DNA from: a virus
Reading direction: 5' to 3' (one strand)
IMG/VR virus record: IMGVR_UViG_3300029913_000003
Location: 1-64,000 of that record
DNA length: 64,000 nucleotides
Position numbers and translations under genes: made by a program. Of this stretch, positions 9,745 through 57,006 are shown one piece after another. Numbering within the stretch: the first letter of the stretch is position 1; each line of letters opens with the position of its first letter. The notes beneath the pieces are model-generated. The model searched no databases, was not told the origin of the DNA, and was given only the letters and a program-made list of their open reading frames with translations.

Positions 9745-10143
9745 TTAATTTTTTATATCATTCCAATCAATATCATCACTATCTACATATTCATCAATTT
9801 CTTGGTTTCTATATTTGGAAATAATTTCTTGCCATGTTGGTTTAACTTTCCAAATACCAAGTATATTTATATAATCAGACCATTCAATGTGATTATCAAT
9901 ATCATAAACTTCTTCTCTATTTTCATTAACCCATTTAACATAATTAAATGCAAATGCTTGATCTGCAACAAAAAATCCAAGGTAAATTGCGAATATAGGT
10001 TTTGTGACTTTAAACACACCTTTATAATTTCTATCTTGATATTCTTGAAAAAGAATATAATCACCGAATTTTAATTGATTACAATTATCTGAGAAAGGAT
10101 TAAGTTTTTTCATAATTTTATATTTCAGTTTGTATTTTTGCAA
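9745..10143 (-). CDS. hypothetical protein (132 aa)
   Basis: ORF track. Confidence 0.5.
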   Translation of the reverse strand: MQKYKLKYKIMKKLNPFSDNCNQLKFGDYILFQEYQDRNYKGVFKVTKPIFAIYLGFFVADQAFAFNYVKWVNENREEVYDIDNHIEWSDYINILGIWKVKPTWQEIISKYRNQEIDEYVDSDDIDWNDIKN

Positions 10144-10300
10144 GTCCGTATCCTAAATATCCTCCTGATACACAGCATAATATAATTGTCAATATTATAT
10201 TATTCATTACAAATAAAGGATTTATAATCATAATTATAACTAATAATAACAATGTAATTATAGATATCACAAAAGGATAATATTTTTTTGCTTTTTTCAT
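10118..10300 (-). CDS. small membrane protein
   Basis: Two predicted TM helices. Confidence 0.45.
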   Translation of the reverse strand: MKKAKKYYPFVISIITLLLLVIIMIINPLFVMNNIILTIILCCVSGGYLGYGLAKIQTEI

Positions 10301-10305
10301 ATTTT

Positions 10306-10659
10306 TTATTTATAATTAACTTCTAAATAATGTTTTATACATTTATTTAATAATTCTGGATGAAGAATCTTTGCTGTTTGAATAGCGTCCATTTGCATTT
10401 CTGGCTTAGTATATCTTGCTAATGCCCAATCTATGTATGCTTCATATAAATCTTCATCTGTCTTTACATTGTGATGCCTTGCTATTCTTCTATGAATTTT
10501 AGATGCATTATAATCTCCTAAAATAAGAATAAGAATCATTTTTTCTAAATCGTGTTTAATTACTCTTAGCAATGAAACTTTTGTGGTTTCAGTCTTCCAC
10601 AATTTTAAAATTGCTATCTTATGTTTATATACTCTTTTAGATTCATCAAATCTATTCAT
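10306..10659 (-). CDS. hypothetical protein (117 aa)
   Basis: ORF track. Confidence 0.5.
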   Translation of the reverse strand: MNRFDESKRVYKHKIAILKLWKTETTKVSLLRVIKHDLEKMILILILGDYNASKIHRRIARHHNVKTDEDLYEAYIDWALARYTKPEMQMDAIQTAKILHPELLNKCIKHYLEVNYK

Positions 10660-11267: not shown

Positions 11268-11385
11268 CCGTCAACTTAAACATGCACAAATTTGTACAGG
11301 AAGTGACGTTTGGATGTTGTTTGATAACATTCCTTGTCCGAACACACTATTCTTTATAAATTTAAAGAAATCGTAGTCGCATTTA
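11268..11385 (-). ncRNA. putative omega-RNA (reRNA) scaffold region at TnpB 3' end
   Basis: ~118 nt at the 3' end of the TnpB ORF is repeated at 28386..28508; hairpin with conserved loop ATCAAAC kept by compensatory stem changes. Confidence 0.4.
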
Positions 11386-12728
11386 ATTTTAACTGGATTA
11401 CACAGTTTAAACATATAATTTTTCAGCCATGAAAAATCATTATTTTTGTTTGATTTTTTAATATGATTAACTGCACCATTTAAATCTGCATTCATTGTTT
11501 TATTTATTAGTTTGTCTGTAAACAATCCACGTTTAGAACGAACACCATTTAGTTCTTTATCTAACGGATTATTAACATCATCACTAACACAAGAACACTT
11601 GGAAGTGTAGGCTTCGTTAATTATATCTACTTGAATTCCAACTTCATTACTTTTATATTGAATGTAATCCAATAATTTAATGAAAGGAATCTGTATGAAA
11701 TTTTGTTTTACTTTATTATTTAATTTGCAGTCACCATTATATTTTAAGCTAGCTAAATTATATGATATGGTTAGGTTTGTTACTGAATTTAATTTCAAGA
11801 ACTCAACTACCCTTTTACTTACTTTATGAAACTGATCATAAAAATAACGATTCCTCTTTTCATAAAGAAATGTCTTATACTTCCTTAATTCTATTCCTCT
11901 TTGAGTCCACTTGGAAGCATATTTAATATTATTTTTACTTAAACTATATTCTATTACTTCGTTAGAAATTGATTCATTTAATTTAGCTATAAAACGATTG
12001 AATTTTGAGTTATAAGTCTTAAAGTGATTTCCATCTACAATAATTGATTTAGATTTTTTATCATCAATAAATATTGCAAGCAAATTATTGACTCCAACAT
12101 CAATCCCTGCTTCTTTTATGTTCAAATTACTATTTAAAATATCTTCAGTTAAATAGTTCAAGTGTAAATAAATTTCTTTGTTTGAGTAAACTATTTTAAG
12201 GCTTTGAATGTTTTTTGGTAGAAATTCGTGTTTGAAATCAATGTAAAACATTTTATTACTTAAGTTAATTCCAATTTTATCTTTTTTCTTGAAGGAAAAT
12301 GCAATTTGATCAACTAAAATTGAATATTTTGTTACCAAGAATAGCTTTTTAGCACTGGGTGTATTTGCCTTAACTTTTTGTTTGATTTTAGTGAAAAATG
12401 CTTTATAACTTACTTTAACTCTCTTAATCAAATCAGAAATATTATGAATTTTAAGACATTTAGATAAACGAATCAACTCAATCATTTTATCATAATTTTT
12501 ATATTTATCTTTAATAAACTTTACTTTGTCTTTTTCCAAACCGCCAGCAGTTTCAGCAAGAACTGCTCTCATGACTTTATAGTTAGAAAGTAAATTAAAA
12601 TCTTCTTGGTTTTCCTTCAATATTATAAGGTATAAGTTTTCGAAGTGACGATATTTGAAAATATAATCACTCATCATTTTTTTATATTTATCTTCTTTAA
12701 TGTGTATTATGAAGGTTCTATTATTCAT
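11271..12728 (-). CDS. tnpB: TnpB / Fanzor-like RuvC-fold RNA-guided nuclease (IS200/IS605 OrfB family)
   Basis: RuvC-I GIDVGVNN, RuvC-II INEAYTSKCSC, RuvC-III NADLNGAVNHI; 485 aa; no adjacent TnpA. Confidence 0.8.
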   Translation of the reverse strand: MNNRTFIIHIKEDKYKKMMSDYIFKYRHFENLYLIILKENQEDFNLLSNYKVMRAVLAETAGGLEKDKVKFIKDKYKNYDKMIELIRLSKCLKIHNISDLIKRVKVSYKAFFTKIKQKVKANTPSAKKLFLVTKYSILVDQIAFSFKKKDKIGINLSNKMFYIDFKHEFLPKNIQSLKIVYSNKEIYLHLNYLTEDILNSNLNIKEAGIDVGVNNLLAIFIDDKKSKSIIVDGNHFKTYNSKFNRFIAKLNESISNEVIEYSLSKNNIKYASKWTQRGIELRKYKTFLYEKRNRYFYDQFHKVSKRVVEFLKLNSVTNLTISYNLASLKYNGDCKLNNKVKQNFIQIPFIKLLDYIQYKSNEVGIQVDIINEAYTSKCSCVSDDVNNPLDKELNGVRSKRGLFTDKLINKTMNADLNGAVNHIKKSNKNNDFSWLKNYMFKLCNPVKIKCDYDFFKFIKNSVFGQGMLSNNIQTSLPVQICACLS

Positions 12729-20084: not shown

Positions 20085-20387
20085 ATGAAAATAGGAGATA
20101 AAATATTTTGCTTAGATTATCAAATATATTCGGATTATAATGACGATATTAAATATAAAGGAGGATTATTAAAAAAAAATACAGAATATACAATCTATGG
20201 TATTTTTTTAGAATTTAGTGATTATTCTGAAAAATGGGTAGCAGAAACTCCTAAGATAGATGATAATAATTGTCAAATATATTTTGAATTAATTGAACTT
20301 GATGAGTTGATGTTTAATAAATGTAGATTTTTAACTAATAATGAATATAGAAAACTTAAGTTGCAGAAAATATATGAAAGTAGGTGA
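20085..20387 (+). CDS. family A small protein (MKIGDKIFCLD)
   Basis: ORF track. Confidence 0.55.
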   Translation: MKIGDKIFCLDYQIYSDYNDDIKYKGGLLKKNTEYTIYGIFLEFSDYSEKWVAETPKIDDNNCQIYFELIELDELMFNKCRFLTNNEYRKLKLQKIYESR

Positions 20388-20607
20388 TAAAGTAATTTTT
20401 CATAGTAATCATTATTATAGAGATTTAATAGAAGGTTACACATATACAATATCTGAAATTAATAGAATAGATGATGCTTATATTGAAATACCTAACGAAG
20501 ATTATATTATAGTATTATTAGAAAATACTTACGTTTTTTTATCAGATTTTATAACTATAAAAGAATATCGAAAACTTAAATTGAAAGAAATAGATGAAAG
20601 TAGGTGA
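20341..20607 (+). CDS. family A small protein (MKVGDKVIF)
   Basis: ORF track. Confidence 0.55.
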   Translation: MNIENLSCRKYMKVGDKVIFHSNHYYRDLIEGYTYTISEINRIDDAYIEIPNEDYIIVLLENTYVFLSDFITIKEYRKLKLKEIDESR

Positions 20608-20797
20608 TAAAGTTGTATGTATTGATAATTATAATTATACATATAAAATTTCATTAGATAAAATTTTAACAATAAAATTCAATAATAATTCTTATATGAA
20701 ATTTGATGAAATCGATTATAGATATTCAAGTAATAGATTTATAACTATAAAAGAATATAGAAAACGTAAATTAAAAAAATTAAAAAACTTATACTAA
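20594..20797 (+). CDS. family A small protein (MKVGDKVVCID)
   Basis: ORF track. Confidence 0.55.
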   Translation: MKVGDKVVCIDNYNYTYKISLDKILTIKFNNNSYMKFDEIDYRYSSNRFITIKEYRKRKLKKLKNLY

Positions 20798-20835: not shown

Positions 20836-21360
20836 ATGACAGAAAACAAACAAATAAATAAAAATGTAACTTTTTTTGGAGGTGCTATTAATGATAGAAC
20901 TACTTCTAAATATAGTGATAGTGTTTTAATTGGAAACTTTTTAGCTTCAAATGGGTATATAATTAAAAATGGAGGATATAGTGGATTAATGGAAGCTGTT
21001 TCTAAGGGAGCTAATGAAGCAGAAGGTACAATAATTGGTTATACTTGTTTATCTATTGGCTGTGCAAGAGGAAATGAATATTTAACAGAAACAGTTCCTT
21101 GTATTGACATCTATCAAAGATTGAGATTATTAATATCTGATAGTGAAATTTTTATAGTCCAAATAGGTGGAATTGGTACATTATCTGAAGTGTTTCTTCT
21201 ATTAGATGGCATAAGAAAATTAAAAGTAAAACCAAGAATATTTTTATTTGGACCTGAATGGAACAATTTATTTAATAATTTAACTGACTTTATGTCACCT
21301 GATCAAATAAAAATGATCACATTTTGTCAGGATTTTGAAGAATTTATAAAAGTTTTTTAA
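20836..21360 (+). CDS. LOG-family (TIGR00730-like) Rossmann-fold nucleotide-binding protein
   Basis: NGGYSGLMEAVSKGANEAEG and QIGGIGTLSEV resemble LOG GGYGGxMEA / PGGxGTxEE motifs. Confidence 0.5.
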   Translation: MTENKQINKNVTFFGGAINDRTTSKYSDSVLIGNFLASNGYIIKNGGYSGLMEAVSKGANEAEGTIIGYTCLSIGCARGNEYLTETVPCIDIYQRLRLLISDSEIFIVQIGGIGTLSEVFLLLDGIRKLKVKPRIFLFGPEWNNLFNNLTDFMSPDQIKMITFCQDFEEFIKVF

Positions 21361-22962: not shown

Positions 22963-23033
22963 GCTCATTTAGTCCAGTGATAGGGCGGTAGCCTCTAAAA
23001 CTACCTACATCGGTTTGAATCCGATAGTGAGCA
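22963..23033 (+). tRNA. tRNA with anticodon CUA (amber-reading / suppressor-type), hand-folded
   Basis: Acceptor GCTCATT/AGTGAGC; D-stem GTCC/GGGC; anticodon stem GTAGC/ACTAC with loop CTCTAAA (U33, A37); T-arm ATCGG-TTTGAAT-CCGAT; discriminator A; 71 nt. Confidence 0.65.
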
Positions 23034-23070
23034 CAAATATATTTTTCATAAGGTATATTTATTTTTAAAA

Positions 23071-25707: not shown

Positions 25708-25914
25708 ATGATGGATAATTTAAATTATCTTAATTGTAATTATAAAATTCATATTCAATATCAAGTAAATGATTATATAAACATAAATGATGTTTTTATA
25801 TATCCATATTATGCAGCCAATGAATGTGATATTATATTAACAGATTTTGATTTTATTAAATATTATAGAAAACAAAAACTTAAAGAAATATGTTTAAACC
25901 AGGAGATAGAGTAG
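25708..25914 (+). CDS. family A member with decayed N-terminus (tail YYRKQKLKEICLNQEIE)
   Basis: Upstream in-frame remnant DYGVAVVFSRK lacks a start. Confidence 0.45.
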   Translation: MMDNLNYLNCNYKIHIQYQVNDYININDVFIYPYYAANECDIILTDFDFIKYYRKQKLKEICLNQEIE

Positions 25915-26132
25915 TTTGCATAAATGATGAAAATAATTGTGATCCAAATATAAATCTAATTAAATATAATATTTATATTGTAAAAGAGTTACATGAATAT
26001 ACCAATAATAGAATAATATTAGAATATCATGAAAATAGTTTATATTATAATACTAGATTTATATTATTAAAAGAATATAGAAAAGAAAAACTCAAACAAA
26101 TAGAATTATGTTCAAACCAGGAGATAAAGTAG
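25890..26132 (+). CDS. family A small protein (MFKPGDRVVCIND)
   Basis: Tandem array; junction ELCSNQEIK overlaps next start. Confidence 0.6.
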   Translation: MFKPGDRVVCINDENNCDPNINLIKYNIYIVKELHEYTNNRIILEYHENSLYYNTRFILLKEYRKEKLKQIELCSNQEIK

Positions 26133-26344
26133 TGTGTATTAATGATAAATATTTTTATAATGATAAATCTATAATAGAAATGATTAAATATAATATTTAT
26201 ACAATAAATAGAATTGCAGAAATTTCAGGTAGCAATACAGATAGAGTTGTATTATATGAATGTAAACGTATGTATTTTTCACACAGATTCATATCATTAA
26301 AAGAATATAGAAAACAAAAATTATTAGAAATATGTTCAAAGTAG
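26108..26344 (+). CDS. family A small protein
   Basis: MFKPGDKVVCIND ... RFISLKEYRKQKLLEI. Confidence 0.6.
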   Translation: MFKPGDKVVCINDKYFYNDKSIIEMIKYNIYTINRIAEISGSNTDRVVLYECKRMYFSHRFISLKEYRKQKLLEICSK

Positions 26345-26598
26345 GAGATAAAGTAGTTTGTATTGATGTTAAAAAATATAATAATAATAATTATAATGTA
26401 AACCTAATTAAATATAATATTTATACAATTAATATAGATTTTTCAGTTTTTGATAGATCAAGTTTTGGTAGATCAAGAGTTGAAATAAAAGAATGTTGTA
26501 ATGAGACATTTTATTCAGAGAGATTTATATTATTAAAAGAATATAGAAAACAAAAACTCAAACAAATAGAATTATGTTCAAACCAGGAGATAAAGTAG
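26332..26598 (+). CDS. family A small protein
   Basis: MFKVGDKVVCIDV ... RFILLKEYRKQKLKQI. Confidence 0.6.
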   Translation: MFKVGDKVVCIDVKKYNNNNYNVNLIKYNIYTINIDFSVFDRSSFGRSRVEIKECCNETFYSERFILLKEYRKQKLKQIELCSNQEIK

Positions 26599-26813
26599 TT
26601 TGCATTGATCAACAATATAGAAAAAAATACAATTTACCTAATACAATATTAGAAGTTACAGAATATAAAGATATAAGATATAAAAAATTATTTAGTGAAA
26701 ATTTTATTATTTGTTTCAAAGATATAAAATATGGATATAATTATAATTGTTTTATGCTATTAAAAGAATATCGTAAATTAAAATTATTAAAATTAAATAA
26801 AAATGATAAGTGA
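26574..26813 (+). CDS. family A small protein
   Basis: MFKPGDKVVCIDQ ... LLKEYRKLKLLKL. Confidence 0.6.
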   Translation: MFKPGDKVVCIDQQYRKKYNLPNTILEVTEYKDIRYKKLFSENFIICFKDIKYGYNYNCFMLLKEYRKLKLLKLNKNDK

Positions 26814-27084
26814 ATCAAGTCTTGTTAATTATATAGAAAATCTAAATCTTAGAAAAACCCATGAATGTTTTGATACTAACTATATAATTGATAATAATTA
26901 TATAATATGCATTGAATCATCTACTAATGTTTTTTTCATAGATAAAAAAATGAATTCGAACCTGTATATTTTCATAATTAATATTGAAAAATTAAAAGAT
27001 ATTTATTATAAAAAAACTGGTAAAAATATAGAAATTTTAATGAGAAAAGAAAAACTAAAAAAATTAGAAGAATGTTCAAGATAA
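26803..27084 (+). CDS. divergent array member (tail LMRKEKLKKLEECSR)
   Basis: Lacks GD start motif. Confidence 0.45.
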   Translation: MISESSLVNYIENLNLRKTHECFDTNYIIDNNYIICIESSTNVFFIDKKMNSNLYIFIINIEKLKDIYYKKTGKNIEILMRKEKLKKLEECSR

Positions 27085-27296
27085 GAGATAGAGTAGTTTG
27101 CATTGATAATTCTTATTTATATGATATAAATCTATTACAATTAAATAATATTTATATAATTGAAGATATTTTTAGTTATGATACAGAAAATAATTATATT
27201 GGTATGATATTAGAAAAATATAATTTTGAATTTAATTCTAATAGATTTATATCATTAAAAGAATATAGAAAACAAAAAATATTAAAATTATGTTAA
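27072..27296 (+). CDS. family A small protein (MFKIRDRVVCIDN)
   Basis: ORF track. Confidence 0.55.
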   Translation: MFKIRDRVVCIDNSYLYDINLLQLNNIYIIEDIFSYDTENNYIGMILEKYNFEFNSNRFISLKEYRKQKILKLC

Positions 27297-27535
27297 AACC
27301 AGGAGATAAAGTAATTTGTATTGATAATTCTTATTTAGATGATAATAGTATGAGAAAATTATTATTAAACCATATTTATATAATTAAACTATGCTTTACA
27401 TATCAATCAGATCATTTTAATTATATTATATTAGAAAATGATTTTGAATATCATGAAAATAGATTTATAACATTAAAAGAATATAGAAAACAAAAACTAT
27501 TAAAATTATGTTCAAACCAGGAGATAAGTTATTAG
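27290..27535 (+). CDS. family A small protein (MLKPGDKVICIDN)
   Basis: ORF track. Confidence 0.55.
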   Translation: MLKPGDKVICIDNSYLDDNSMRKLLLNHIYIIKLCFTYQSDHFNYIILENDFEYHENRFITLKEYRKQKLLKLCSNQEISY

Positions 27536-27756
27536 AAATATCAACTAACAAAATTTTCACATTCTGTGATTATATAAAAACTATATCATATTCATCAAAT
27601 TATAATGATATGATAGTGAATGATTATGATTATGAAAATGGTTTAATATCAATCAATGAAGATGCAGAAAATTATCATAGAATTAATAAATATTTATCTA
27701 TTAAAGAATGTAGAAAAGAAAAACTTAAAAAATTATATAAAGATTTTAATATTTAA
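27508..27756 (+). CDS. family A divergent member (MFKPGDKLLEIS)
   Basis: ORF track. Confidence 0.5.
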   Translation: MFKPGDKLLEISTNKIFTFCDYIKTISYSSNYNDMIVNDYDYENGLISINEDAENYHRINKYLSIKECRKEKLKKLYKDFNI

Positions 27757-28615: not shown

Positions 28616-28840
28616 ATGAAAATAGGAGATAAAGTTTTATTTACTGATTATTTTTATGAACATCATAAATATATAACAGATAATAGATATAATATTTTTA
28701 CAATCAAAGATTATTTTAGCGATAATTTCACCATTATTTCTTTATATGAACTTCCAATGTATTATTTTGAACCAAAAAATTTAATAACAGTATCAGAAAT
28801 TAGAAAAAAAAAATTAAAAAAATTAAAAATATATGAATAA
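28616..28840 (+). CDS. family A small protein (MKIGDKVLFTD ... VSEIRKKKLKKL)
   Basis: ORF track. Confidence 0.55.
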   Translation: MKIGDKVLFTDYFYEHHKYITDNRYNIFTIKDYFSDNFTIISLYELPMYYFEPKNLITVSEIRKKKLKKLKIYE

Positions 28841-29384
28841 ATTCGGAGTAATATTAGCAAGAGTTCAGCCAGTACATAATGGTCATATGGCATTAATTAA
28901 AAAGGCATATGATGAAAATGAAAATGTAGTATTTTTAGTTGGAAGTGCGGATAAAGTTGACTCAAGAAATCCAATTCCAGTTAGCATTAGAATTGAAATG
29001 CTAAAAGATGCATTAAAAGAAGCTAAGTTGATTGATAAATGTTTAATAATACCATTAGATGATTTAACTTCAGAAAGTGATAATTCTATTGAATGGGGTT
29101 TTTATCTTTATACTAAAATAGTAGATCAAATTAAAGATAGTTGTTTCACTATGTATTATTCAGATGGATTTGAAATCATCACTAAATGGTTTCCAGGATT
29201 TATGTTCAAAAATAATGTATCTCTGGTGCTATTAGCAAGAGGAACTGTTGAAGATGGTGTATCTGCTACCGAAGTTAGAAAAGCTATACTGAGCAATTCT
29301 CCTGAGCTAAAAAACATGGTTCCAAAATCAGTCTATAATAACAGAAATACGATTAAATCATTTATTGAATTAAATAAAGAATGA
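28833..29384 (+). CDS. nicotinamide-nucleotide adenylyltransferase, archaeal NadM-type cytidylyltransferase fold
   Basis: ARVQPVHNGH matches NMNAT GRFQPFHxGH; SATEVRKAI matches SxTxIR; 183 aa. Confidence 0.6.
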   Translation: MNKFGVILARVQPVHNGHMALIKKAYDENENVVFLVGSADKVDSRNPIPVSIRIEMLKDALKEAKLIDKCLIIPLDDLTSESDNSIEWGFYLYTKIVDQIKDSCFTMYYSDGFEIITKWFPGFMFKNNVSLVLLARGTVEDGVSATEVRKAILSNSPELKNMVPKSVYNNRNTIKSFIELNKE

Positions 29385-29914: not shown

Positions 29915-30208
29915 ATGAAAGAGCACAATCACAATAATGATATTAATTATAATGCTGTTATTGAACAATGTGGTTTAATATTATATAAAAAGAAAGCAAT
30001 AGGTAATAAAGCAAGATTATTGTATATAATTCAAGCAAAATCTGGTAGATATGATCATCAAAGTATTATTATAATAAAAGAAATTAATAAAGATTTCATA
30101 AAAATAAATGATTCTAATGATATAGAATCAAAATTATATGAACCAGATAGATTACTTTATAACCAAATAAAAGAATATATAATAGAAGCAAATTATGAAT
30201 ATAGATAG
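29915..30208 (+). CDS. hypothetical protein
   Basis: ORF track. Confidence 0.45.
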   Translation: MKEHNHNNDINYNAVIEQCGLILYKKKAIGNKARLLYIIQAKSGRYDHQSIIIIKEINKDFIKINDSNDIESKLYEPDRLLYNQIKEYIIEANYEYR

Positions 30209-31217
30209 AAAATTAGCAACAATTCAGGTAATTAAAGACATATTACCAATTAAAGGAGCAGATAGAATAGAGGTTGCACGCATAAAAGGTTGGAAAGTAG
30301 TAGTTAAAAAAGACGAATTTAAAGTAGGTGACAAAGTTGTTTATTTTGAAATTGATTCACTATTACCTATTAGAGAAGAATTTGAATTTCTTAGAAATAG
30401 TTCATATAGAAAAACTGATGAACAAGAAGGTTTCCTCTTGAGAACGGTCAAATTACGCAAACAATTTTCATGTGGACTAATAATGTCATTAGATATTTTA
30501 AATGATACACCTTGTCATATATTTAAATTGACAGAAGGTGATGATGTATCTGATTATCTAAATGTTGTAAAATTTGAAGTTCCAATACCTGATGAACTTA
30601 AAGCTGATGTTGTTGGTCCTATTCCTTCATTCATATTGAAGACAAATGAAGAACGCGCACAAAATTTATCTGATGATTTCGATGAATGGAAAAAAGATAA
30701 TGTAATATTCTATGAAACAGAGAAACTTGATGGTCAATCTACCACTATGTATTTACATAATGGAGTATTTGGCGTGTGTGGTAGAAACTGGGAATTTAAA
30801 AGAAATCCAAATAATTTATTTTGGAAATTTGCAATTGAAAATAATATTGAAGAGAAATTAAGAATATATGGTAAAAATATTGCTGTTCAAGGTGAATTAA
30901 TTGGTTCAGGAATAGAAGGCAATAACTATAAATTAAGCCATAAAACAATAAAATATTTTAGAGTTTTTAATATAGATGAATATAAATTGGAAGATTATAA
31001 TACATTCGTTGATATTGTAACTAATGTATTAAATGCTGACACGGTTCCTTTAATTTGTAGTTATTATAAATTACCTGGCACTATTGATGAAATATTAAAA
31101 CATGTTGAAGGCAAATCTGTATTAACAAATTCATCAAAAAGGGAGGGAAGTGTATTTAAATCAATTGATTCATCAATAAGTTTTAAGGTCATTAACAATG
31201 AATATTTAATTAATTGA
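30195..31217 (+). CDS. ATP-dependent RNA ligase (Rnl5/DraRnl-like: N-terminal OB/tRNA-binding fold plus nucleotidyltransferase)
   Basis: N-terminus IKGADRIEVARIKGWKVVV..VGDKVVYFE resembles OB tRNA-binding fold; ligase motif I ETEKLDGQS (KxDG); 340 aa. Confidence 0.5.
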   Translation: MNIDRKLATIQVIKDILPIKGADRIEVARIKGWKVVVKKDEFKVGDKVVYFEIDSLLPIREEFEFLRNSSYRKTDEQEGFLLRTVKLRKQFSCGLIMSLDILNDTPCHIFKLTEGDDVSDYLNVVKFEVPIPDELKADVVGPIPSFILKTNEERAQNLSDDFDEWKKDNVIFYETEKLDGQSTTMYLHNGVFGVCGRNWEFKRNPNNLFWKFAIENNIEEKLRIYGKNIAVQGELIGSGIEGNNYKLSHKTIKYFRVFNIDEYKLEDYNTFVDIVTNVLNADTVPLICSYYKLPGTIDEILKHVEGKSVLTNSSKREGSVFKSIDSSISFKVINNEYLIN

Positions 31218-34383: not shown

Positions 34384-34872
34384 TCAGAACAAATCAAGTA
34401 AATTAAAATATGTTCTTTCTGTGAATTTGGACCTTAATCTATTTAATTGAATTAAGAATTCACTTTTTGTTATTAATGTATTAGTTTTTCCAGATTTTCC
34501 AATAGAATGTTCTAATTTATAAGGTATTGATTCTTTTAAACTATTTCTAAAATATTCATTTTTTTCAAATAAGCAATCATAAGATCTTGTTATTAAATTA
34601 TCATATTCTTCGGATTGTCTATCAATTGGAGTAGATATCCAATATAATTTTTGCTTATCTACCCAATTTAAATATTGACCAGCTTTCCATGCTTCAAACC
34701 CTGATAGTTTCCATATATTCTCTTTAATTTGTATATCTGGAGTCCTTAAAGACTGTACAAAGCCTTCATATGAAGCCACAGATATACCGTCAATCTCGAA
34801 TTGATAAGGATATAAATTTGATAGTTTTTTTTCTAAACCATCAGTTCTAAATTTAATATCTAATATTTCCAT
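34384..34872 (-). CDS. NADAR / YbiA-like (DUF1768) domain protein
   Basis: LSNLYPYQFEIDGISVASYEGFVQSL resembles YbiA SNFYPspFelDGitfptvEHyfQA. Confidence 0.5.
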   Translation of the reverse strand: MEILDIKFRTDGLEKKLSNLYPYQFEIDGISVASYEGFVQSLRTPDIQIKENIWKLSGFEAWKAGQYLNWVDKQKLYWISTPIDRQSEEYDNLITRSYDCLFEKNEYFRNSLKESIPYKLEHSIGKSGKTNTLITKSEFLIQLNRLRSKFTERTYFNLLDLF

Positions 34873-39743: not shown

Positions 39744-40445
39744 ATGAAAATTTTAAACATAGGGGATATTCACGGATTTGATTCATGGAAAAAATTTGTA
39801 GATGATATTTCTCAATATGATAAAATAATATTTGTAGGAGATTATGTTGATGAATATCATCTAAGTAATATTACAATATTAAATAATTTATTAGATATCA
39901 TTGAATTTAAGAAAAAATATCCAGATAAAGTTATTTTATTATTAGGTAATCATGATTATCAATATGCTATACGACCACCTAGTATGAATATTTTAGGACA
40001 TTGCTCTGGATATAGAGCAGAAATGCATTTTGATTTATATGAAATATTTCATAATAATTTAAAATTATTTCAATTATCTTATCAATACGAAAATTATATT
40101 TGGACCCATGCAGGAATTCATCGTGGATGGTATGACCATTTTTTAATAGAATTTAAAAAAGTTTCTGATTTTGAAGGTACTATATCAGATAAATTAAATT
40201 TAGCATTTGAATTTGAGTTAGAATGCTTACTTGATTGCGGATATGTACGTGGTGGATATAATAAAGTTAGCGGTCCATTGTGGGCTGATAAAACTGAATC
40301 ATGGACTAAACCATTAAAGAATTGTCATCAAATTTGCGGTCATACCCACACAGATAAAATAGTTCATCATGAAATACCAAATATAAATTCATCTGTTACA
40401 TATATTGACTCCTTGCCAGAATATTGTTACATTTTAAATATATAA
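39744..40445 (+). CDS. calcineurin-like metallophosphoesterase (PPP / ApaH / lambda-phosphatase-like)
   Basis: GDIHG ... FVGDYVDEY ... LLGNHDYQY ... GHTHTD. Confidence 0.6.
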   Translation: MKILNIGDIHGFDSWKKFVDDISQYDKIIFVGDYVDEYHLSNITILNNLLDIIEFKKKYPDKVILLLGNHDYQYAIRPPSMNILGHCSGYRAEMHFDLYEIFHNNLKLFQLSYQYENYIWTHAGIHRGWYDHFLIEFKKVSDFEGTISDKLNLAFEFELECLLDCGYVRGGYNKVSGPLWADKTESWTKPLKNCHQICGHTHTDKIVHHEIPNINSSVTYIDSLPEYCYILNI

Positions 40446-41375: not shown

Positions 41376-41468
41376 AAGAAAGTAAGTCAAAAGGTCAGAC
41401 TAGTAAAGCCAAAAAAGCGTTTATATAAAAAATATTCATTTATGTTGGTTCGAATCCAACCTTTCTTT
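41376..41468 (+). tRNA. tRNA-like gene with canonical T-arm and D-arm plus ~20 extra nt (possible intron)
   Basis: Acceptor AAGAAAG/CTTTCTT perfect 7 bp; D-arm AGTC-AAAAGGTCA-GACT; T-arm GTTGG-TTCGAAT-CCAAC; anticodon region not canonical. Confidence 0.4.
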
Positions 41469-44739: not shown

Positions 44740-44958
44740 ATGAAAATAGGAGAATTAATAGATTTAAACTCAGAAGCTCATGAAATTATAAATTCCAATT
44801 TAAGTTGGAATGTTAAATATGATTTGATTTTTTCTGATGATATGTCATCAAAAGTTAAATTAGATTATTATGATCCAGACACATCATATGAAGAAGATGT
44901 ACTAGCTTGGATTGGAGCCTTTGATGAATATTTAAAATATAATAACATATTAAAATGA
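44740..44958 (+). CDS. hypothetical acidic small protein
   Basis: ORF track. Confidence 0.4.
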   Translation: MKIGELIDLNSEAHEIINSNLSWNVKYDLIFSDDMSSKVKLDYYDPDTSYEEDVLAWIGAFDEYLKYNNILK

Positions 44959-45575
44959 AAAATATCGCACTTTTTTTTGGTAGCTATAATCCTTGTCATA
45001 ATACACATATTAAGGTAGCTGAATGTGTATCTAAGTTAGATTATATTGATGAAGTGCAATTAGTAGTTTCGCCACAAAATCCATTTAAGCATGATTTAGC
45101 TGATTATAATGATAGATTTAATATGTGTGAGTTATCTGTAGAAAATTATGCTAATATCACAGTAAATCATATCGAACGTTATTTACCTTTACCATCATTT
45201 ACCATTAATGCATTAAATGAGTTAAGTAAATTAAATCCTGATACTAAATATTATATGATAATGGGGTTAGATATTTTTTTAGATATAGATAAATGGAAAA
45301 GTTATAAGGTTATATGTGAAAAATACCCTTTTTTAGTTTTACCAAGAGATTTTGATATAGAAACAAATGAAAAATGTTTTATTTATAAGAAAACTGAATT
45401 ACTCAATAGTAATGTAATTATAAATAAAGATACTGTTTTTTTGAAAGATTTTAAAATATCATCATTATCTTCAACAAAAATAAGAAATAGTGTTGCAAAT
45501 TCAGAAGATATTAGTATCTTTGTACCAGAAACAGTAAATAAATATATTCATCAACATAATCTATACAAAATATGA
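44955..45575 (+). CDS. nadD: nicotinate/nicotinamide mononucleotide adenylyltransferase (bacterial NadD-type)
   Basis: GSYNPCHNTH (HxGH-type) and ISSTKIRN (SxT.IR) motifs; 206 aa. Confidence 0.55.
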   Translation: MKNIALFFGSYNPCHNTHIKVAECVSKLDYIDEVQLVVSPQNPFKHDLADYNDRFNMCELSVENYANITVNHIERYLPLPSFTINALNELSKLNPDTKYYMIMGLDIFLDIDKWKSYKVICEKYPFLVLPRDFDIETNEKCFIYKKTELLNSNVIINKDTVFLKDFKISSLSSTKIRNSVANSEDISIFVPETVNKYIHQHNLYKI

Positions 45576-47313: not shown

Positions 47314-47511
47314 ATGAATGCTACTGAAATTGTTACAAATAGAGAAGATTTTAAAGATAAATTAAAAAAACTTTTCATTCCATCATGTATAAAGGATTTT
47401 GGTGATATAGAACCATTTAACATAGGATACGCAATGAAAAACTGGACATTTTTTTATTATTCTGTTGAAAATATTGGAATACATACAGTAGAATTAATTG
47501 AAAATAAATAA
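47314..47511 (+). CDS. hypothetical small protein
   Basis: ORF track. Confidence 0.4.
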   Translation: MNATEIVTNREDFKDKLKKLFIPSCIKDFGDIEPFNIGYAMKNWTFFYYSVENIGIHTVELIENK

Positions 47512-47920
47512 TATGAAAAAACAATTTATATCACCTTTTAATGAGGAGTCTTTTGAAAAAGAATTTATTCAACATGATATTAGTAAATATGATGTTTTGT
47601 ATCATGTAACAACTGAAGATAGAATAGAAAATATTAAAAATGATGGACTGAAAATTAACCAGCCTCAGTATAAATCACTTGTTGAGACAGGGATGTTGTT
47701 CTTTTCTTATCCTATACTACATAATACTCAAGATTTATTTAGATATTATGATAAATCGTATATTGTAGCACTTGATGTACAAAAATTGATTAAAGATGGT
47801 ATTATTTTTTATGATGATAATTTCTCAAATCAAGATCAATCATCAAATAGAAATCATTTATGCTGTGAAGTAGATATACCAGTTAAATATATTAAAAAAA
47901 TTATAGAACCATTTGAATAA
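47498..47920 (+). CDS. hypothetical protein
   Basis: ORF track. Confidence 0.4.
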   Translation: MKINNMKKQFISPFNEESFEKEFIQHDISKYDVLYHVTTEDRIENIKNDGLKINQPQYKSLVETGMLFFSYPILHNTQDLFRYYDKSYIVALDVQKLIKDGIIFYDDNFSNQDQSSNRNHLCCEVDIPVKYIKKIIEPFE

Positions 47921-49873: not shown

Positions 49874-50608
49874 GTGAATATTAAATATATAATAATAAAA
49901 AATATGGAAATAGAAGCACTTTTTATATCAGATGTGCATCTTGGTACAAAATATACAAAAGCTACTGAATTATTAGAAATATTAAAATATTATAAGCCAA
50001 AAAAATTATTTTTAATAGGAGATATCATTGATGGATGGGCGTTAAAAAAGAAGCATTACTGGAATCAAGAACAAACAAATGTAATTAGAAAAATTTTATC
50101 ATATTCAAAAAATGGAACAGAAATATATTACATATCAGGAAATCATGATGATTTTTTAAAACATTATATATTTGATTTTGGTAATATTCATATAATATCT
50201 GAAATGATATGGAATAATTGTTTAATTACTCATGGAGATAAATATGATACTGTAGTTATGAATAATAAATGGATTGCTCATTTGGGTAGTATTGGTTATG
50301 ATATCGCTCTTTATTTAAATAAATATATTAGTAATATTAGAAAATTATTTGGTTTAGATAAAAAATCTTTCAGTAAATGGTTAAAAAATAATGTAAAAGA
50401 AGCTATCAATTTTATATACAAATTTGAAGAAATTTTAATAACAGATACAATAAAAAAAGGTTGTGATACTGTAATTTGCGGTCATGTTCACACTCCTGAT
50501 GATAAAATTATAAATAATGTAAGATATTTAAATACTGGTGATTGGATTGAAAATTGTTCATATATTATATATGATAAAAATAAATTCACTTTAAAATATT
50601 ATGATTAA
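49874..50608 (+). CDS. LpxH-like calcineurin-type metallophosphoesterase
   Basis: FISDVHLG ... LIGDIIDGW ... ISGNHDDF ... THGDKYD ... CGHVHTP. Confidence 0.6.
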   Translation: MNIKYIIIKNMEIEALFISDVHLGTKYTKATELLEILKYYKPKKLFLIGDIIDGWALKKKHYWNQEQTNVIRKILSYSKNGTEIYYISGNHDDFLKHYIFDFGNIHIISEMIWNNCLITHGDKYDTVVMNNKWIAHLGSIGYDIALYLNKYISNIRKLFGLDKKSFSKWLKNNVKEAINFIYKFEEILITDTIKKGCDTVICGHVHTPDDKIINNVRYLNTGDWIENCSYIIYDKNKFTLKYYD

Positions 50609-53380: not shown

Positions 53381-54010
53381 ATGCAACCAGAATACGAGCA
53401 CATTATTCAAATCTTAGCATCATTAGCCGCTGGCTCTATATTGGGATTAGAACGTGGATTTCATGGTAAGCCTGCAGGTTTTAAAACTATGATATTGATT
53501 TGCGTTAGTTCATGTTTATTCACTATACTATCAGTTAATTTAGTTAGTGGTGATCGTATAGCATCAAATATAGTTACAGGAATAGGATTTATTGGTGCTG
53601 GAGTTGTATTTAAAGAAGGTGGAAATGTTCGTGGTATAACTTCTGCAGCTATCATTTGGATGGCATCAGCAATAGGTATGTGTATTGGGTTTCAAAATTA
53701 CGCACTATCTTTCTTTGTTTTATTAGTAGTTATGCTAGTTATGATTGTACTATTTAAGTTTGAGAAATTGTTTGATACTTTTCATCATTCTAAATTATAT
53801 ATTATACATTTTATATTTTCTGAATATTCATTAGAAGATTTAGAAAAAGAAATGACAGAACTTGAAATTTCATATAAAAGAAATAAAATAGGTAAAACTA
53901 ATAATATTATTAATGTTGAATATAATGTAATAATTTATCCAATTGAAAATATGAAAAAAATTGATAATTTTTTAATCAATAATACTCATATAAATAGTTT
54001 TTATGATTAA
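53381..54010 (+). CDS. mgtC: MgtC/SapB family membrane protein
   Basis: LAAGSILGLERGFHGKPAGFKT ... GIGFIGAGVVFKEGGNVRGITSAA; 4-5 TM helices. Confidence 0.7.
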   Translation: MQPEYEHIIQILASLAAGSILGLERGFHGKPAGFKTMILICVSSCLFTILSVNLVSGDRIASNIVTGIGFIGAGVVFKEGGNVRGITSAAIIWMASAIGMCIGFQNYALSFFVLLVVMLVMIVLFKFEKLFDTFHHSKLYIIHFIFSEYSLEDLEKEMTELEISYKRNKIGKTNNIINVEYNVIIYPIENMKKIDNFLINNTHINSFYD

Positions 54011-54717: not shown

Positions 54718-55656
54718 ATGAAAAAAGATAAAAAATTAGTCATATCTTGTGGATTACCAGCAGCAGGTAAATCAAGCATCATTGAAAAATATGTTGATTA
54801 TAAATGTACATTACTATCAAGAGATATTGAAGGAGATACATTAAGTTCTCTTAATAAAAAACTTGAACAATTAATGTTAGATGGCGTGGATATTGTATTA
54901 GATGGAACATATTCAACTAAATTATCTAGGGCTGATGTTATTGAATTAGCAAAAAAATATAATTATTATATATTATGTATTCATTTTACTACAAAAATTG
55001 AAGATTGTATGTTCAATCAGGTAACAAGAATGATAAGAAAATATGGTAAATTATTCACAGAATTAAGTGAATATTCTAACTCTAATGATCCACATATGTT
55101 TCCTGTTGCTGCACTTTATAAAATTAATAAAAATTTTGAAGCACCTGAATTATCAGAAGGTATTGATGATATAGAAAAAATAGATTTTAAACGTTATTCA
55201 TCAGAATATAAAAATAAAGCAATTTTATTTGATTATGATGGTACATTGAGATTAACTAAAAGTGGTGAACATTATCCAACTGATATTAGTGATATTGAAA
55301 TAATTCCAGGTAGAACAGAAAAACTTTTAGAATTACAAAGTCAAGGTTATATATTACTTGGAGTTTCAAATCAAAGTGGAATAGCAAAAGGATTATTATC
55401 TAATGATACAGCAATAGCTTGTTTTGAAAAAACAAATGAAATGCTAGGAGTTAATATTGATTATAAATATTGTGGGCATTCAGTTCCTCCAATAACTTGC
55501 TATTGTAGAAAACCAGGAGTTGGACTAGGAATAGAATTTATTGAAAAATATAAACTTGATCCATCTCAATGCATAATGGTTGGAGATTTAACAAGTGATA
55601 AAACATTTGCTAAAAGATGTGGATTCAAATATATTGATGCTGCTAATTTCTTCTAA
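54718..55656 (+). CDS. polynucleotide kinase / 3'-phosphatase (T4 Pnkp-like: P-loop kinase plus HAD phosphatase)
   Basis: Walker A SCGLPAAGKSS; HAD motifs LFDYDGTL, GVSNQSG, VGDLTSD; domain order as in T4 Pnkp. Confidence 0.6.
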   Translation: MKKDKKLVISCGLPAAGKSSIIEKYVDYKCTLLSRDIEGDTLSSLNKKLEQLMLDGVDIVLDGTYSTKLSRADVIELAKKYNYYILCIHFTTKIEDCMFNQVTRMIRKYGKLFTELSEYSNSNDPHMFPVAALYKINKNFEAPELSEGIDDIEKIDFKRYSSEYKNKAILFDYDGTLRLTKSGEHYPTDISDIEIIPGRTEKLLELQSQGYILLGVSNQSGIAKGLLSNDTAIACFEKTNEMLGVNIDYKYCGHSVPPITCYCRKPGVGLGIEFIEKYKLDPSQCIMVGDLTSDKTFAKRCGFKYIDAANFF

Positions 55657-56283: not shown

Positions 56284-57006
56284 ATGCCAAAAATTTATGA
56301 AGTGGGCGGATGTGTACGTGACCGTATCTTAGGAGTTGATTGTAAAGATATAGACTTTACTTTTGTATTGGATGACAAGAATCAATCAGTTGAATCTGGA
56401 TTCATGTCAATGGACTTGTGGTTACGTAAAAATGGCTACACCGTATATAATTCAACTCCAAGATGTTTCACAATCAAAGCAAAGTTTCCAAAAGGACATA
56501 AGCATGAAGGGTTAACTGCAGATTTTGTAATGGCTAGAAAGGAAATTGGTTATTACGAAGGAACAAGACGTCCAATTTTAGAACTTGGTACACTTGAAGA
56601 TGATTTAATCAGACGTGATTTCACATTGAATGCTATGGCACTTGATGAAGATGAAAATTTGATTGATTTATTTGATGGAGTAAAAGATCTTAAAATGGGT
56701 ATTCTTAGAACGCCAAGACCTTGCCAACTTACATTTGATGAGGATCCATTACGGATTTTACGTTGTGAGCGTTTTTGTATTACAAAAGGTTTCAGAATGA
56801 CTGATGATATTGAAGTTGCTATTAAAAATTATGATTATGAATCAAAAATGCAAGTAGTTTCAAATGAAAGAATTCAAGATGAACTTACCAAGTGTTTTAA
56901 ATTTGATACATTAAAAACAATTTTGATGTTGAATGAATTTCCTGAATTGAGAGATTATGTATTTAATCATACTAAGATGTGGTTGAAACCATCATTTCAA
57001 AAATAA
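56284..57006 (+). CDS. tRNA nucleotidyltransferase (CCA-adding / poly(A) polymerase) head-domain protein, Pol-beta superfamily
   Basis: N-terminal YEVGGCVRDRILGVDCKDIDFTF matches class-II GGxVRD...DxD; only 240 aa. Confidence 0.55.
   Translation: MPKIYEVGGCVRDRILGVDCKDIDFTFVLDDKNQSVESGFMSMDLWLRKNGYTVYNSTPRCFTIKAKFPKGHKHEGLTADFVMARKEIGYYEGTRRPILELGTLEDDLIRRDFTLNAMALDEDENLIDLFDGVKDLKMGILRTPRPCQLTFDEDPLRILRCERFCITKGFRMTDDIEVAIKNYDYESKMQVVSNERIQDELTKCFKFDTLKTILMLNEFPELRDYVFNHTKMWLKPSFQK

Follow-up and report, generated by a model that had tools for sequence, protein, structure and literature searches.

Two putative NAD+-related adenylyltransferases, an AdfN-family NADAR protein and a PPK2-HAD fusion dispersed in an AT-rich jumbo phage genome

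Does a virus that encodes two different adenylyltransferases for the last step of NAD+ (nicotinamide adenine dinucleotide) synthesis carry a pathway for the maintenance of its nucleotide pools, or do these genes belong to something less unified? The question is raised by four open reading frames (ORFs) in a 64-kb stretch of the IMG/VR virus record IMGVR_UViG_3300029913_000003 (positions 1 to 64,000), called the window in the following. ORF1 resembles the archaeal type of nicotinamide mononucleotide (NMN) adenylyltransferase (NMNAT) and NadM, ORF2 belongs to the T4 gp30.3/AdfN family of NADAR proteins, ORF3 is of the bacterial NadD type, and ORF4 joins a PPK2 polyphosphate kinase domain to a HAD_SAK_2 domain. 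A first-pass annotation had read the four genes as a common theme of NAD+ and nucleotide-pool maintenance; the ORFs and motifs that it listed were confirmed at exactly the coordinates given. The results favor a looser interpretation. The four genes are probably real, functional and independently acquired, and they would form part of a counter-defence repertoire of a jumbo phage, most likely of Bacteroidota, that concerns NAD+, ADP-ribose and RNA repair, and not one pathway.

Pfam, NCBIfam and PHROGs searches with the four ORFs returned the anticipated PPK2, NadD and CTP_transf_like families, but for ORF2 they yielded the phage gp30.3 model and not the Pfam NADAR model itself. The match of ORF1 to CTP_transf_like (PF01467) had an E of 6e-9, and its best NCBIfam matches were archaeal NMNAT and NadM (TIGR01527, 57.5 versus a cut-off of 181.2; NF002243, 69 versus 127). 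Two motifs are present, ARVQPVHNGH at residues 9-18, which is a HIGH-type motif within RxQPxHxGH, and VSATEVR at residues 143-149, which corresponds to the ISxTxxR ATP-phosphate motif. R10, H15, H18, and R149 align with R11, H16, H19, and R136 of M.th NMNAT, and three of the latter (R11, H19, and R136) are the residues mutated in deposited structures. Across a three-residue insertion, the invariant D77, N84, and W88 of ORF1 align with M.th D80, N84, and W87, which would be residues of the NMN pocket. The nearest structural neighbor of the fold is NMNAT, and the identity to NadM is about 20-27%. Judged from these alignments, the second substrate of ORF1 is most likely NMN. The earlier assignment to NMNAT rather than to a non-NMNAT cytidylyltransferase family was borne out by the top matches, which were NMNAT, NadM or NadR in every search, but not by the thresholds, as ORF1 stayed under every NMNAT cut-off.

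The ORF1 family, which is currently annotated merely as 'cytidyltransferase', comprises 639 homologues, essentially all on phage-like contigs. Members were found on at least 80 IMG/VR contigs and in 10 of 185,579 species genomes, there mostly on phage-sized contigs, with six binned with Bacteroides, Muribaculaceae or Bacteroidales. One isolate carries a member, the Bacteroides phage BS-TP1 (52% identity). Neither ORF1 nor the listed homologues (180-261 aa) contain a Nudix domain. The ratio of nonsynonymous to synonymous substitution rates (dN/dS) of ORF1 versus its relatives was 0.08-0.09.

ORF3 matched the NadD model TIGR00482 with 138.1 bits, above the cut-off of 112.45, and the match spanned residues 6-204 of 206. 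Both motifs of bacterial NadD are present, GSYNPCHNTH at residues 9-18 (GxxxPxHxxH) and SSTKIR at residues 172-177 (ISSTxxR), and the PDB matches are NadD proteins (E 1.6e-16). By the curated threshold and the PDB matches, ORF3 can be regarded as a full-length, genuine NadD. It differs from the bacterial enzymes in being phage-encoded, in its distance to the nearest cellular NadD (35-41% identity), and in evolving faster than ORF1 (dN/dS 0.23-0.36). Its close homologues (66-100% identity) fall into about 10 clusters, all of them on contigs of this phage clade. The next-best sequences, at the cellular distance just given, are NadD proteins of Chitinophagales, Mucilaginibacter, Carboxylicivirga, Paludibacteraceae, Flavobacteriales, and other Bacteroidota. 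Because these homologues are next in line, ORF3 was apparently captured from a Bacteroidota host, which supports that phylum as the host phylum.

The two adenylyltransferases had been called unrelated, which turned out to be incorrect. They are different families of one superfamily (HIGH/CTP_transf_like) with different histories, and in a pairwise BLASTP comparison they shared just the two superfamily motifs (E 0.027). Their independent acquisition, which had also been proposed, is supported by the homologue distributions, because the ORF1 family has hundreds of members, essentially all on phage-like contigs, whereas the close NadD homologues are confined to the clusters of this clade. The pair had further been described as unusual. 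This agrees with the low number of NadD-like sequences in the isolate-dominated phage database (21 of 50,697 records, mostly fragments, plus a 735-kb huge phage), but nadD, nadM, and nadR genes of Bacteroidota jumbo phages have already been published (PMC11662467).

For ORF2, the proposed reversal of DNA ADP-ribosylation by DarT agrees with its family membership. The match to Phage_30_3 (PF08010) was strong (E 6.3e-30, 104.2 bits versus a gathering score of 36), and ORF2 is colinear with T4 gp30.3, with 32% identity and similar length. T4 gp30.3 has been renamed AdfN, since genetics and biochemistry have proven it to be a NADAR DNA ADP-ribosylglycohydrolase that neutralizes DarT1; E36 and K43 are essential, and the K43A variant is inactive (PMC11257639). 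ORF2 contains LSNL at residues 17-20 and YEGFVQSLR at residues 35-43, and it retains the catalytic Glu36 (T4 numbering), which is Glu in 66 of 67 family members sampled. A profile of these 67 sequences had E. coli YbiA (2b3w) as its top PDB match, with an E of 0.001 and an alignment over the SN..F..DG...E..Q..K core, and seven of the 67 also match Pfam NADAR (PF08719). A structure prediction based on a 10-sequence alignment reached a pLDDT (predicted local distance difference test) score of 41, and the NADAR link rests on the profiles and the literature instead. The PF08010 family is large, with 1,040 representative clusters and matches in 1,501 phage records. The dN/dS of ORF2 was 0.20-0.23.

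In ORF4, both domains named by the first-pass annotation were recovered, PPK2 (PF03976, E 6e-73, 245.6 bits) and HAD_SAK_2 (PF18143, E 4e-24, 85.9 bits versus 27.5). Because the score for PPK2 class I (TIGR03707, 272 bits) lies under the cut-off of 301.8, the PPK2 domain is termed merely class-I-like. Matches to class I/II PPK2 structures in the PDB had E values of 1e-63 to 1e-66. GRDAAGKG (Walker A, residues 202-209), DRSWY (residues 258-262), and the lid RFELRK...W align with PA3455, and the Walker A, Walker B, and lid motifs are intact. The HAD part has DIDG as motif I (residues 402-405) and the acidic IIIDDN (residues 505-510). HAD_SAK_2 is a family defined from 'Swiss-army-knife' RNA-repair proteins, so that a reading of ORF4 as a pure nucleotide-pool enzyme became uncertain; a part in RNA repair may be just as fitting for it as one in the maintenance of nucleotide pools. 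None of the 50,697 phage records covers at least 80% of ORF4; PPK2 alone occurs in 634-735-kb huge phages, and the HAD domain alone in Vibrio and Shewanella phages. When the fusion was sought beyond the clade, IMG/VR yielded just two relatives, both 90% identical. The dN/dS of ORF4 was 0.07.

When 150 further ORFs were surveyed with Pfam and then scanned individually, several neighbors with predicted functions in RNA repair or ADP-ribose metabolism were revealed (Table 1). The polynucleotide kinase (PNK), the CCA-adding-like protein and the cREC protein form a cluster 4-7 kb from ORF4. A role of SLOG proteins in the NAD-ADP-ribose network and a predicted role of cREC have been described (PMC9503650). 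A clear gene for KptA, a sirtuin, a Macro or a 2H protein was not identified in the window. The ORF at 47498..47920 (+) was considered as Tpt1/KptA, the NAD+-dependent RNA 2'-phosphotransferase, and is a lead at most (PF01885, E 0.0014, 19 bits versus 26; no PDB match). The phosphoesterase at 39744-40445 was considered as an ADP-ribose pyrophosphatase that might stand in for the Nudix domain of NadM; its PDB sequence matches are just weak ones to Ser/Thr phosphatases.

The neighborhood bears on what ORF4 does. It might act mainly in RNA end-healing in the manner of T4 Pnkp, with PPK2 phosphorylating 5'-OH RNA or locally regenerating nucleoside triphosphates (NTPs) from polyphosphate, and would then not be a general pool enzyme. 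The order of kinase and HAD domain is that of T4 Pnkp, the HAD_SAK_2 family was defined from RNA-repair proteins (PMC9503650), and the cluster around PNK as well as at least two RNA ligases are close by. Nevertheless, this possibility is rated as rather unlikely. The PPK2 domain is very near to the nucleotide-phosphorylating classes I/II and has kept the nucleotide-binding motifs, and a canonical PNK is already encoded. In addition, PPK2 enzymes are not known to act on polynucleotides.

Table 1. Features of the window discussed in the text (coordinates refer to the window)
Feature	Coordinates	Strand	Length	Assignment or remark
ORF1	28833..29384	+	183 aa	Stand-alone NadM/archaeal-type NMN adenylyltransferase-like protein, phage-specific family
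ORF2	34384..34872	-	162 aa	T4 gp30.3/AdfN-family NADAR, putative DNA ADP-ribosylglycohydrolase; strand opposite to neighbors
ORF3	44955..45575	+	206 aa	Bacterial NadD-type nicotinate/nicotinamide mononucleotide adenylyltransferase
ORF4	61890..63539	-	549 aa	N-terminal ~160 aa without match; class-I-like PPK2 169-391; HAD_SAK_2 398-534
LOG/SLOG-family protein	20836..21360	+		Lysine_decarbox, LDcluster4
RNA ligase	30195..31217	+		PHA02142 OB fold + RNA_ligase; 0.8 kb downstream of ORF1
Calcineurin-like phosphoesterase	39744..40445	+		
Second calcineurin-like phosphoesterase	49904..50608	+		
T4-type polynucleotide kinase/phosphatase	54718..55656	+		AAA_33 kinase + PNK3P HAD phosphatase
PolyA_pol head-domain nucleotidyltransferase	56284..57006	+		CCA-adding-enzyme-like
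cREC_REC	57249..57587	-		Cyclic-phosphate-processing receiver domain, E 4e-18

The window has a G+C content of 21.4% and contains about 155 mostly small ORFs that cover about 90% of the sequence. Contigs of relatives with identical or 80-92% identical proteins are 130, 177, 326, 346, and 711 kb long, and a 330-kb viral genome from IMG/VR has to be added. T4-type genes (gp30.3, T4_Y16D, PNK, and RNA ligase) are present. A nucleotide search of the phage database with a 7.5-kb stretch found no related isolate phage and yielded only short RNA-ligase matches. Because of the density of small ORFs, the large contigs of the relatives, the T4-type genes and the lack of a nucleotide match to an isolate, the window can be assigned to the accessory (early-type) arm in the genome of an uncultured, AT-rich jumbo phage of at least 330 kb. 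The host phylum is most likely Bacteroidota: outside phages, the NadD sequences nearest to ORF3 all belong to this phylum, and the ORF1 family occurs in the Bacteroides phage BS-TP1 and on contigs of phage size, most of which were binned with Bacteroides, Muribaculaceae or Bacteroidales.

Homologues of ORF1, ORF2, and ORF3 co-occur on the same contigs of relatives (130, 326, and 711 kb). The stretch from gp30.3 to NadD is syntenic in locus L104, and synteny is kept down to 66-80% protein identity. The dN/dS values of the four genes (0.07-0.36) indicate purifying selection and, therefore, that the genes are functional. The values are not evidence that defence drove the acquisition.

Several points weigh against the interpretation as parts of one repertoire. 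The four genes are dispersed over about 35 kb, with distances of 5-17 kb and dozens of unrelated ORFs between them, and ORF2 lies on the opposite strand; therefore, they are not an operon, and a functional link among them is inferred solely from shared biochemistry. Partner genes, which the first-pass annotation had suggested to look for, were searched in about 80 kb (the window, about 7.5 kb upstream and about 8 kb downstream) by gene size, by the Pfam survey, by per-ORF scans, and among the Pfam annotations that already existed for matching contigs. The region yielded no NadV/NAMPT, Nudix, PRPS-like Adps, Namat, PnuC or NadR, with a weak match in one of 32 surveyed Pfam families still possible. 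Therefore, none of the known NAD+ reconstitution pathways (NARP1-3) is complete in the inspected region. As an enzyme that makes NMN or nicotinate mononucleotide (NaMN) is also lacking in these 80 kb, the substrate supply rests on the host or on the rest of the genome. The assignment of the host is indirect. In ORF2, position 43 is Arg, where T4 AdfN has the essential Lys43, and the basic residue is thus kept; among the 67 family members sampled, Lys was found in 57 and Arg in eight. Lastly, ORF1 aligns to NMNAT mainly over its first 80 residues, and its central motifs are peculiar to the ORF1 family.

In view of this dispersal, the 35 kb might simply contain four independent morons, each with some loose relation to NAD or nucleotides, that came together by chance and have no functional theme. 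The differing acquisition histories and the orientation of ORF2 would fit, and the same region holds a vault-like protein, TnpB, MgtC, ankyrin and leucine-rich repeat (LRR) proteins, and GT2. However, large phages are reported to carry the set of NADAR, SLOG, cREC, RNA ligases, PNK, HAD-SAK, and NMNAT-type proteins together more often than expected by chance (PMC9503650), and the syntenic block persists in relatives with as little as 66% identity. Pure chance is thus considered possible, but not probable.

A different objection concerns ORF1 alone. It could be a phage-specific HIGH-family nucleotidyltransferase for another phosphate substrate, such as an ADP-ribose derivative, a sugar phosphate, or an RNA end in ligation or repair, and not an NMNAT. 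This would explain the scores under all NMNAT equivalog cut-offs and the invariant motifs YYSDGFEIITxWFP and DNSxxWGFY of the family, which are absent from archaeal NMNAT, and phosphopantetheine adenylyltransferase (PPAT) is nearly as near in fold. In addition, a ligase gene lies at most 8 kb from the ORF1-family gene in four lineages, namely in the window, in the P0079 clade, in BS-TP1 (RtcB), and in a gut clade (DNA and RNA ligase). The complete 111.7-kb genome of BS-TP1 contains an NAD-dependent DNA ligase and RtcB, and NadV or Nudix are not annotated in it, in contrast to the rule that every NadM phage carries NadV (PMC9503650). On the other hand, the RxQPxHxGH and GSA...NP signatures and the D/N/W pocket positions align with archaeal NMNAT, every search tops out at NMNAT, NadM or NadR, and the proximity of ligases may be due merely to a shared early-gene region. 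A substrate other than an NAD+ precursor is, therefore, regarded as unlikely.

That the four genes form one coherent NAD+/nucleotide-pool module, selected to survive Thoeris, DSR, and SIR2 systems and with the two NMNATs as redundant back-ups, appears equally improbable: phage NAD+ reconstitution is known (NARP1-3, NAD-jumbo phages), about 4 kb separate a Tad2-like anti-Thoeris gene from the ORF1 homologue of another phage, and all four genes are under purifying selection, but the partner genes are missing from the window and its flanks, the genes are too far apart and interspersed with unrelated ORFs, NadD-type and NadM-type enzymes normally differ in their preferred substrate, the HAD domain is of the RNA-repair type, and NADAR counters DNA ADP-ribosylation and not NAD+ depletion. 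Of the theme proposed by the first-pass annotation, the conservation of NAD+- and ADP-ribose-related genes in the clade has remained; the single pathway has not, as the genes are dispersed and without partners in the roughly 80 kb inspected and the HAD domain points to RNA repair.

Under the preferred reading, a repertoire of independently acquired genes, the following roles can be deduced from homology. ORF1 would join NMN and ATP to NAD+, and ORF3 would join NaMN, possibly also NMN, and ATP to nicotinate adenine dinucleotide (NaAD) or NAD+, with the host NadE completing the synthesis. The two enzymes would be complementary and not redundant. They would raise the capacity of the last adenylyl-transfer step, and NAD+ would be rebuilt from mononucleotides supplied by the host. 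The demand for NAD+ could result from depletion in the host or from consumers of the phage itself, such as NAD-dependent ligation or the removal of RNA 2'-phosphates. ORF2 would strip ADP-ribose from guanines of phage DNA that had been modified by DarT1-like toxins. The PPK2 domain of ORF4 could recharge nucleoside diphosphates to NTPs from polyphosphate and thereby provide ATP for the adenylyltransferases, RNA ligases, and PNK. The SAK-type HAD domain most likely would remove terminal phosphates from RNA ends or nucleotide derivatives, together with PNK, the CCA-adding-like protein, cREC, and the RNA ligases. In this respect, the fusion hints at a link of polyphosphate energy to RNA repair.

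A more specific role for the ORF1 family can also be envisaged. MisA of the Metis system splits NAD+ into NMN and AMP, and its authors predict the same of other calcineurin-like effectors; a phage counter-measure to this type of cleavage is not mentioned in their report (bioRxiv 10.1101/2025.11.05.686725). The ORF1 family might consist of stand-alone NMNATs without Nudix fusion for a one-enzyme 're-ligation' of NAD+, in which NMN and ATP are joined after such effectors have acted and PPK2 recharges AMP/ADP from polyphosphate. Such a route would need two genes and differ from NARP1-3. In addition, NMN set free by NAD-dependent DNA ligase, an enzyme encoded by BS-TP1, would be recycled by the ORF1-type protein. 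The idea is speculative, and we consider it quite doubtful.

Additional observations were made at ORF1-family loci. Another clade, of gut phages of about 185 kb (L026, representing 47 of 80 IMG/VR loci), has a calcineurin-like phosphoesterase gene (7914-8579) that is homologous to the one at 39744-40445 of the window and precedes the ORF1 homologue (9998-10552) by about 1.4 kb. The flanks of the latter encode NrdD, dUTPase, an ATP-dependent DNA ligase, and an RNA-ligase-like protein; hence, this setting is a nucleotide-metabolism and ligase neighborhood and not an anti-defence island. The Tad2-like gene (an anti-Thoeris sponge) mentioned above is located at 12500-12790 of L011/L012, downstream of the ORF1-family gene. 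In the window, a member of a 24-member paralogous family of 62-100-aa proteins is situated directly 5' of ORF1 and overlaps its start. The family forms tandem overlapping arrays at 5602-7663 (-), 20085-20797 (+), 25890-27756 (+), and 28616-28840 (+), and singles also occur. The RNA ligase gene downstream of ORF1 is intact in the window, whereas in 90-92% identical relatives (L004, 11174-13210) an inserted ORF for a GIY-YIG endonuclease (304 aa) separates the part for the OB fold (an ORF of 121 aa) from that for the ligase (an ORF of 235 aa). This looks like an insertion polymorphism of a homing endonuclease or an intron.

The window also contains a tRNA gene with the anticodon CUA, i.e. an amber suppressor, at 22963-23034 (+), which ARAGORN labels 'tRNA-Pyl' (Rfam tRNA, 55 bits). 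Recoding of stop codons was considered on account of this tRNA, but readthrough of TAG or TGA yields no long ORFs within the window, and only one of 75 ORFs of at least 100 aa ends with TAG. The ORFs of the standard code were, therefore, kept; late genes in other parts of the phage genome may still use a recoded TAG. A second tRNA-like element of 93 nt at 41376-41468 (+) was missed by ARAGORN and has an Rfam score of 41 bits. Its acceptor, D, and T arms are canonical, but 27 nt replace the 7-nt anticodon loop, and no U33 or obvious anticodon was seen. A long variable arm or a short intron could account for this, or the tRNA may be degenerate.

The vault-like protein named above (817 aa, 2531-4984, +) has the shoulder and repeat domains of the Major Vault Protein and a Band_7/SPFH match. 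The TnpB-like protein (OrfB_IS605 and a Cas12f1-like TNB domain, 11271-12728, -) has no obvious TnpA nearby. Four ankyrin-repeat ORFs and one LRR ORF occur in a run adjoining the PPK2 fusion, and an MgtC-family membrane protein is encoded as well (58058-61156, -, and 53381-54010, +); such domains are more typical of bacteria associated with eukaryotes. GT2 is a further unrelated gene of the window. The loci L103 (5083-6030) and L101 (4785-7749) show what lies immediately outside the window. On the upstream side, there are genes for a further RNA ligase of 315 aa and for a protein with a DnaJ domain. On the downstream side, an Endonuclease_NS nuclease and a DUF4406/DUF7768 protein are encoded, and 3.9 kb have no called genes.

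How do these results compare with known systems? NAD-jumbo phages, which mostly have Bacteroidota hosts, have been described to encode nadD, nadM, nadR, NAMPT, pncB, nadE, and pnuC (Microbiome 2024, PMC11662467). The phage analyzed here resembles them in the nadD and nadM-type genes, the jumbo genome, and the probable host phylum, and one of them (LR756501, 735 kb), which has a lone nadD, was also matched in our phage-database search. However, the published work stresses complete salvage or Preiss-Handler pathways, often in clusters (NAMPT, pncB-nadD-nadE, pnuC-nadR-nadM), whereas here two unclustered adenylyltransferase steps were found in about 80 kb. Compared with NARP2 (KVP40 NadV and the bifunctional NadM/Nudix protein NatV), NARP1, and NARP3, the nearest characterized relatives of ORF1 are the adenylyltransferase domains of NadM, archaeal NMNAT, and NadR, but ORF1 has neither a Nudix nor a kinase domain, and NadV, PnuC or Adps/Namat partners are found neither in the window and its flanks nor in the complete BS-TP1. 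ORF2 shares family, colinearity and Glu36 with T4 AdfN and differs in the Arg for Lys43; T4 AdfN acts best on hydroxymethylated DNA (PMC11257639). The viral NAD+-ADP-ribose/RNA-repair network (Iyer et al. 2022, PMC9503650) and the window have NADAR, SLOG, cREC, calcineurin-like phosphoesterases, SAK-type HAD, RNA ligases, and PNK in common, but PPK2 goes unmentioned in the survey text, and the PPK2-HAD_SAK_2 fusion is absent from all phage records searched.

Taken together, AdfN, the NAD-jumbo phages, and the co-occurrence of NADAR, SLOG, cREC, and RNA-repair proteins were already published, and the finding mostly confirms published patterns. It goes slightly beyond the literature consulted in three respects. 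The stand-alone NadM-like family is large and restricted to phages, and NadV is not annotated in BS-TP1, its one member genome examined in complete form; NADAR in this clade has Arg in place of Lys43; and PPK2 is fused to HAD_SAK_2. An environmental, extremely AT-rich example is added to the NAD-jumbo phages, and a large, well-conserved and essentially phage-confined family of stand-alone NadM-like proteins is documented. If the ORF1 family indeed consists of NMNATs that operate without NadV, this would be a simpler strategy for the restoration of NAD+ than the three known pathways, and it might match defences that cut NAD+ into NMN and AMP.

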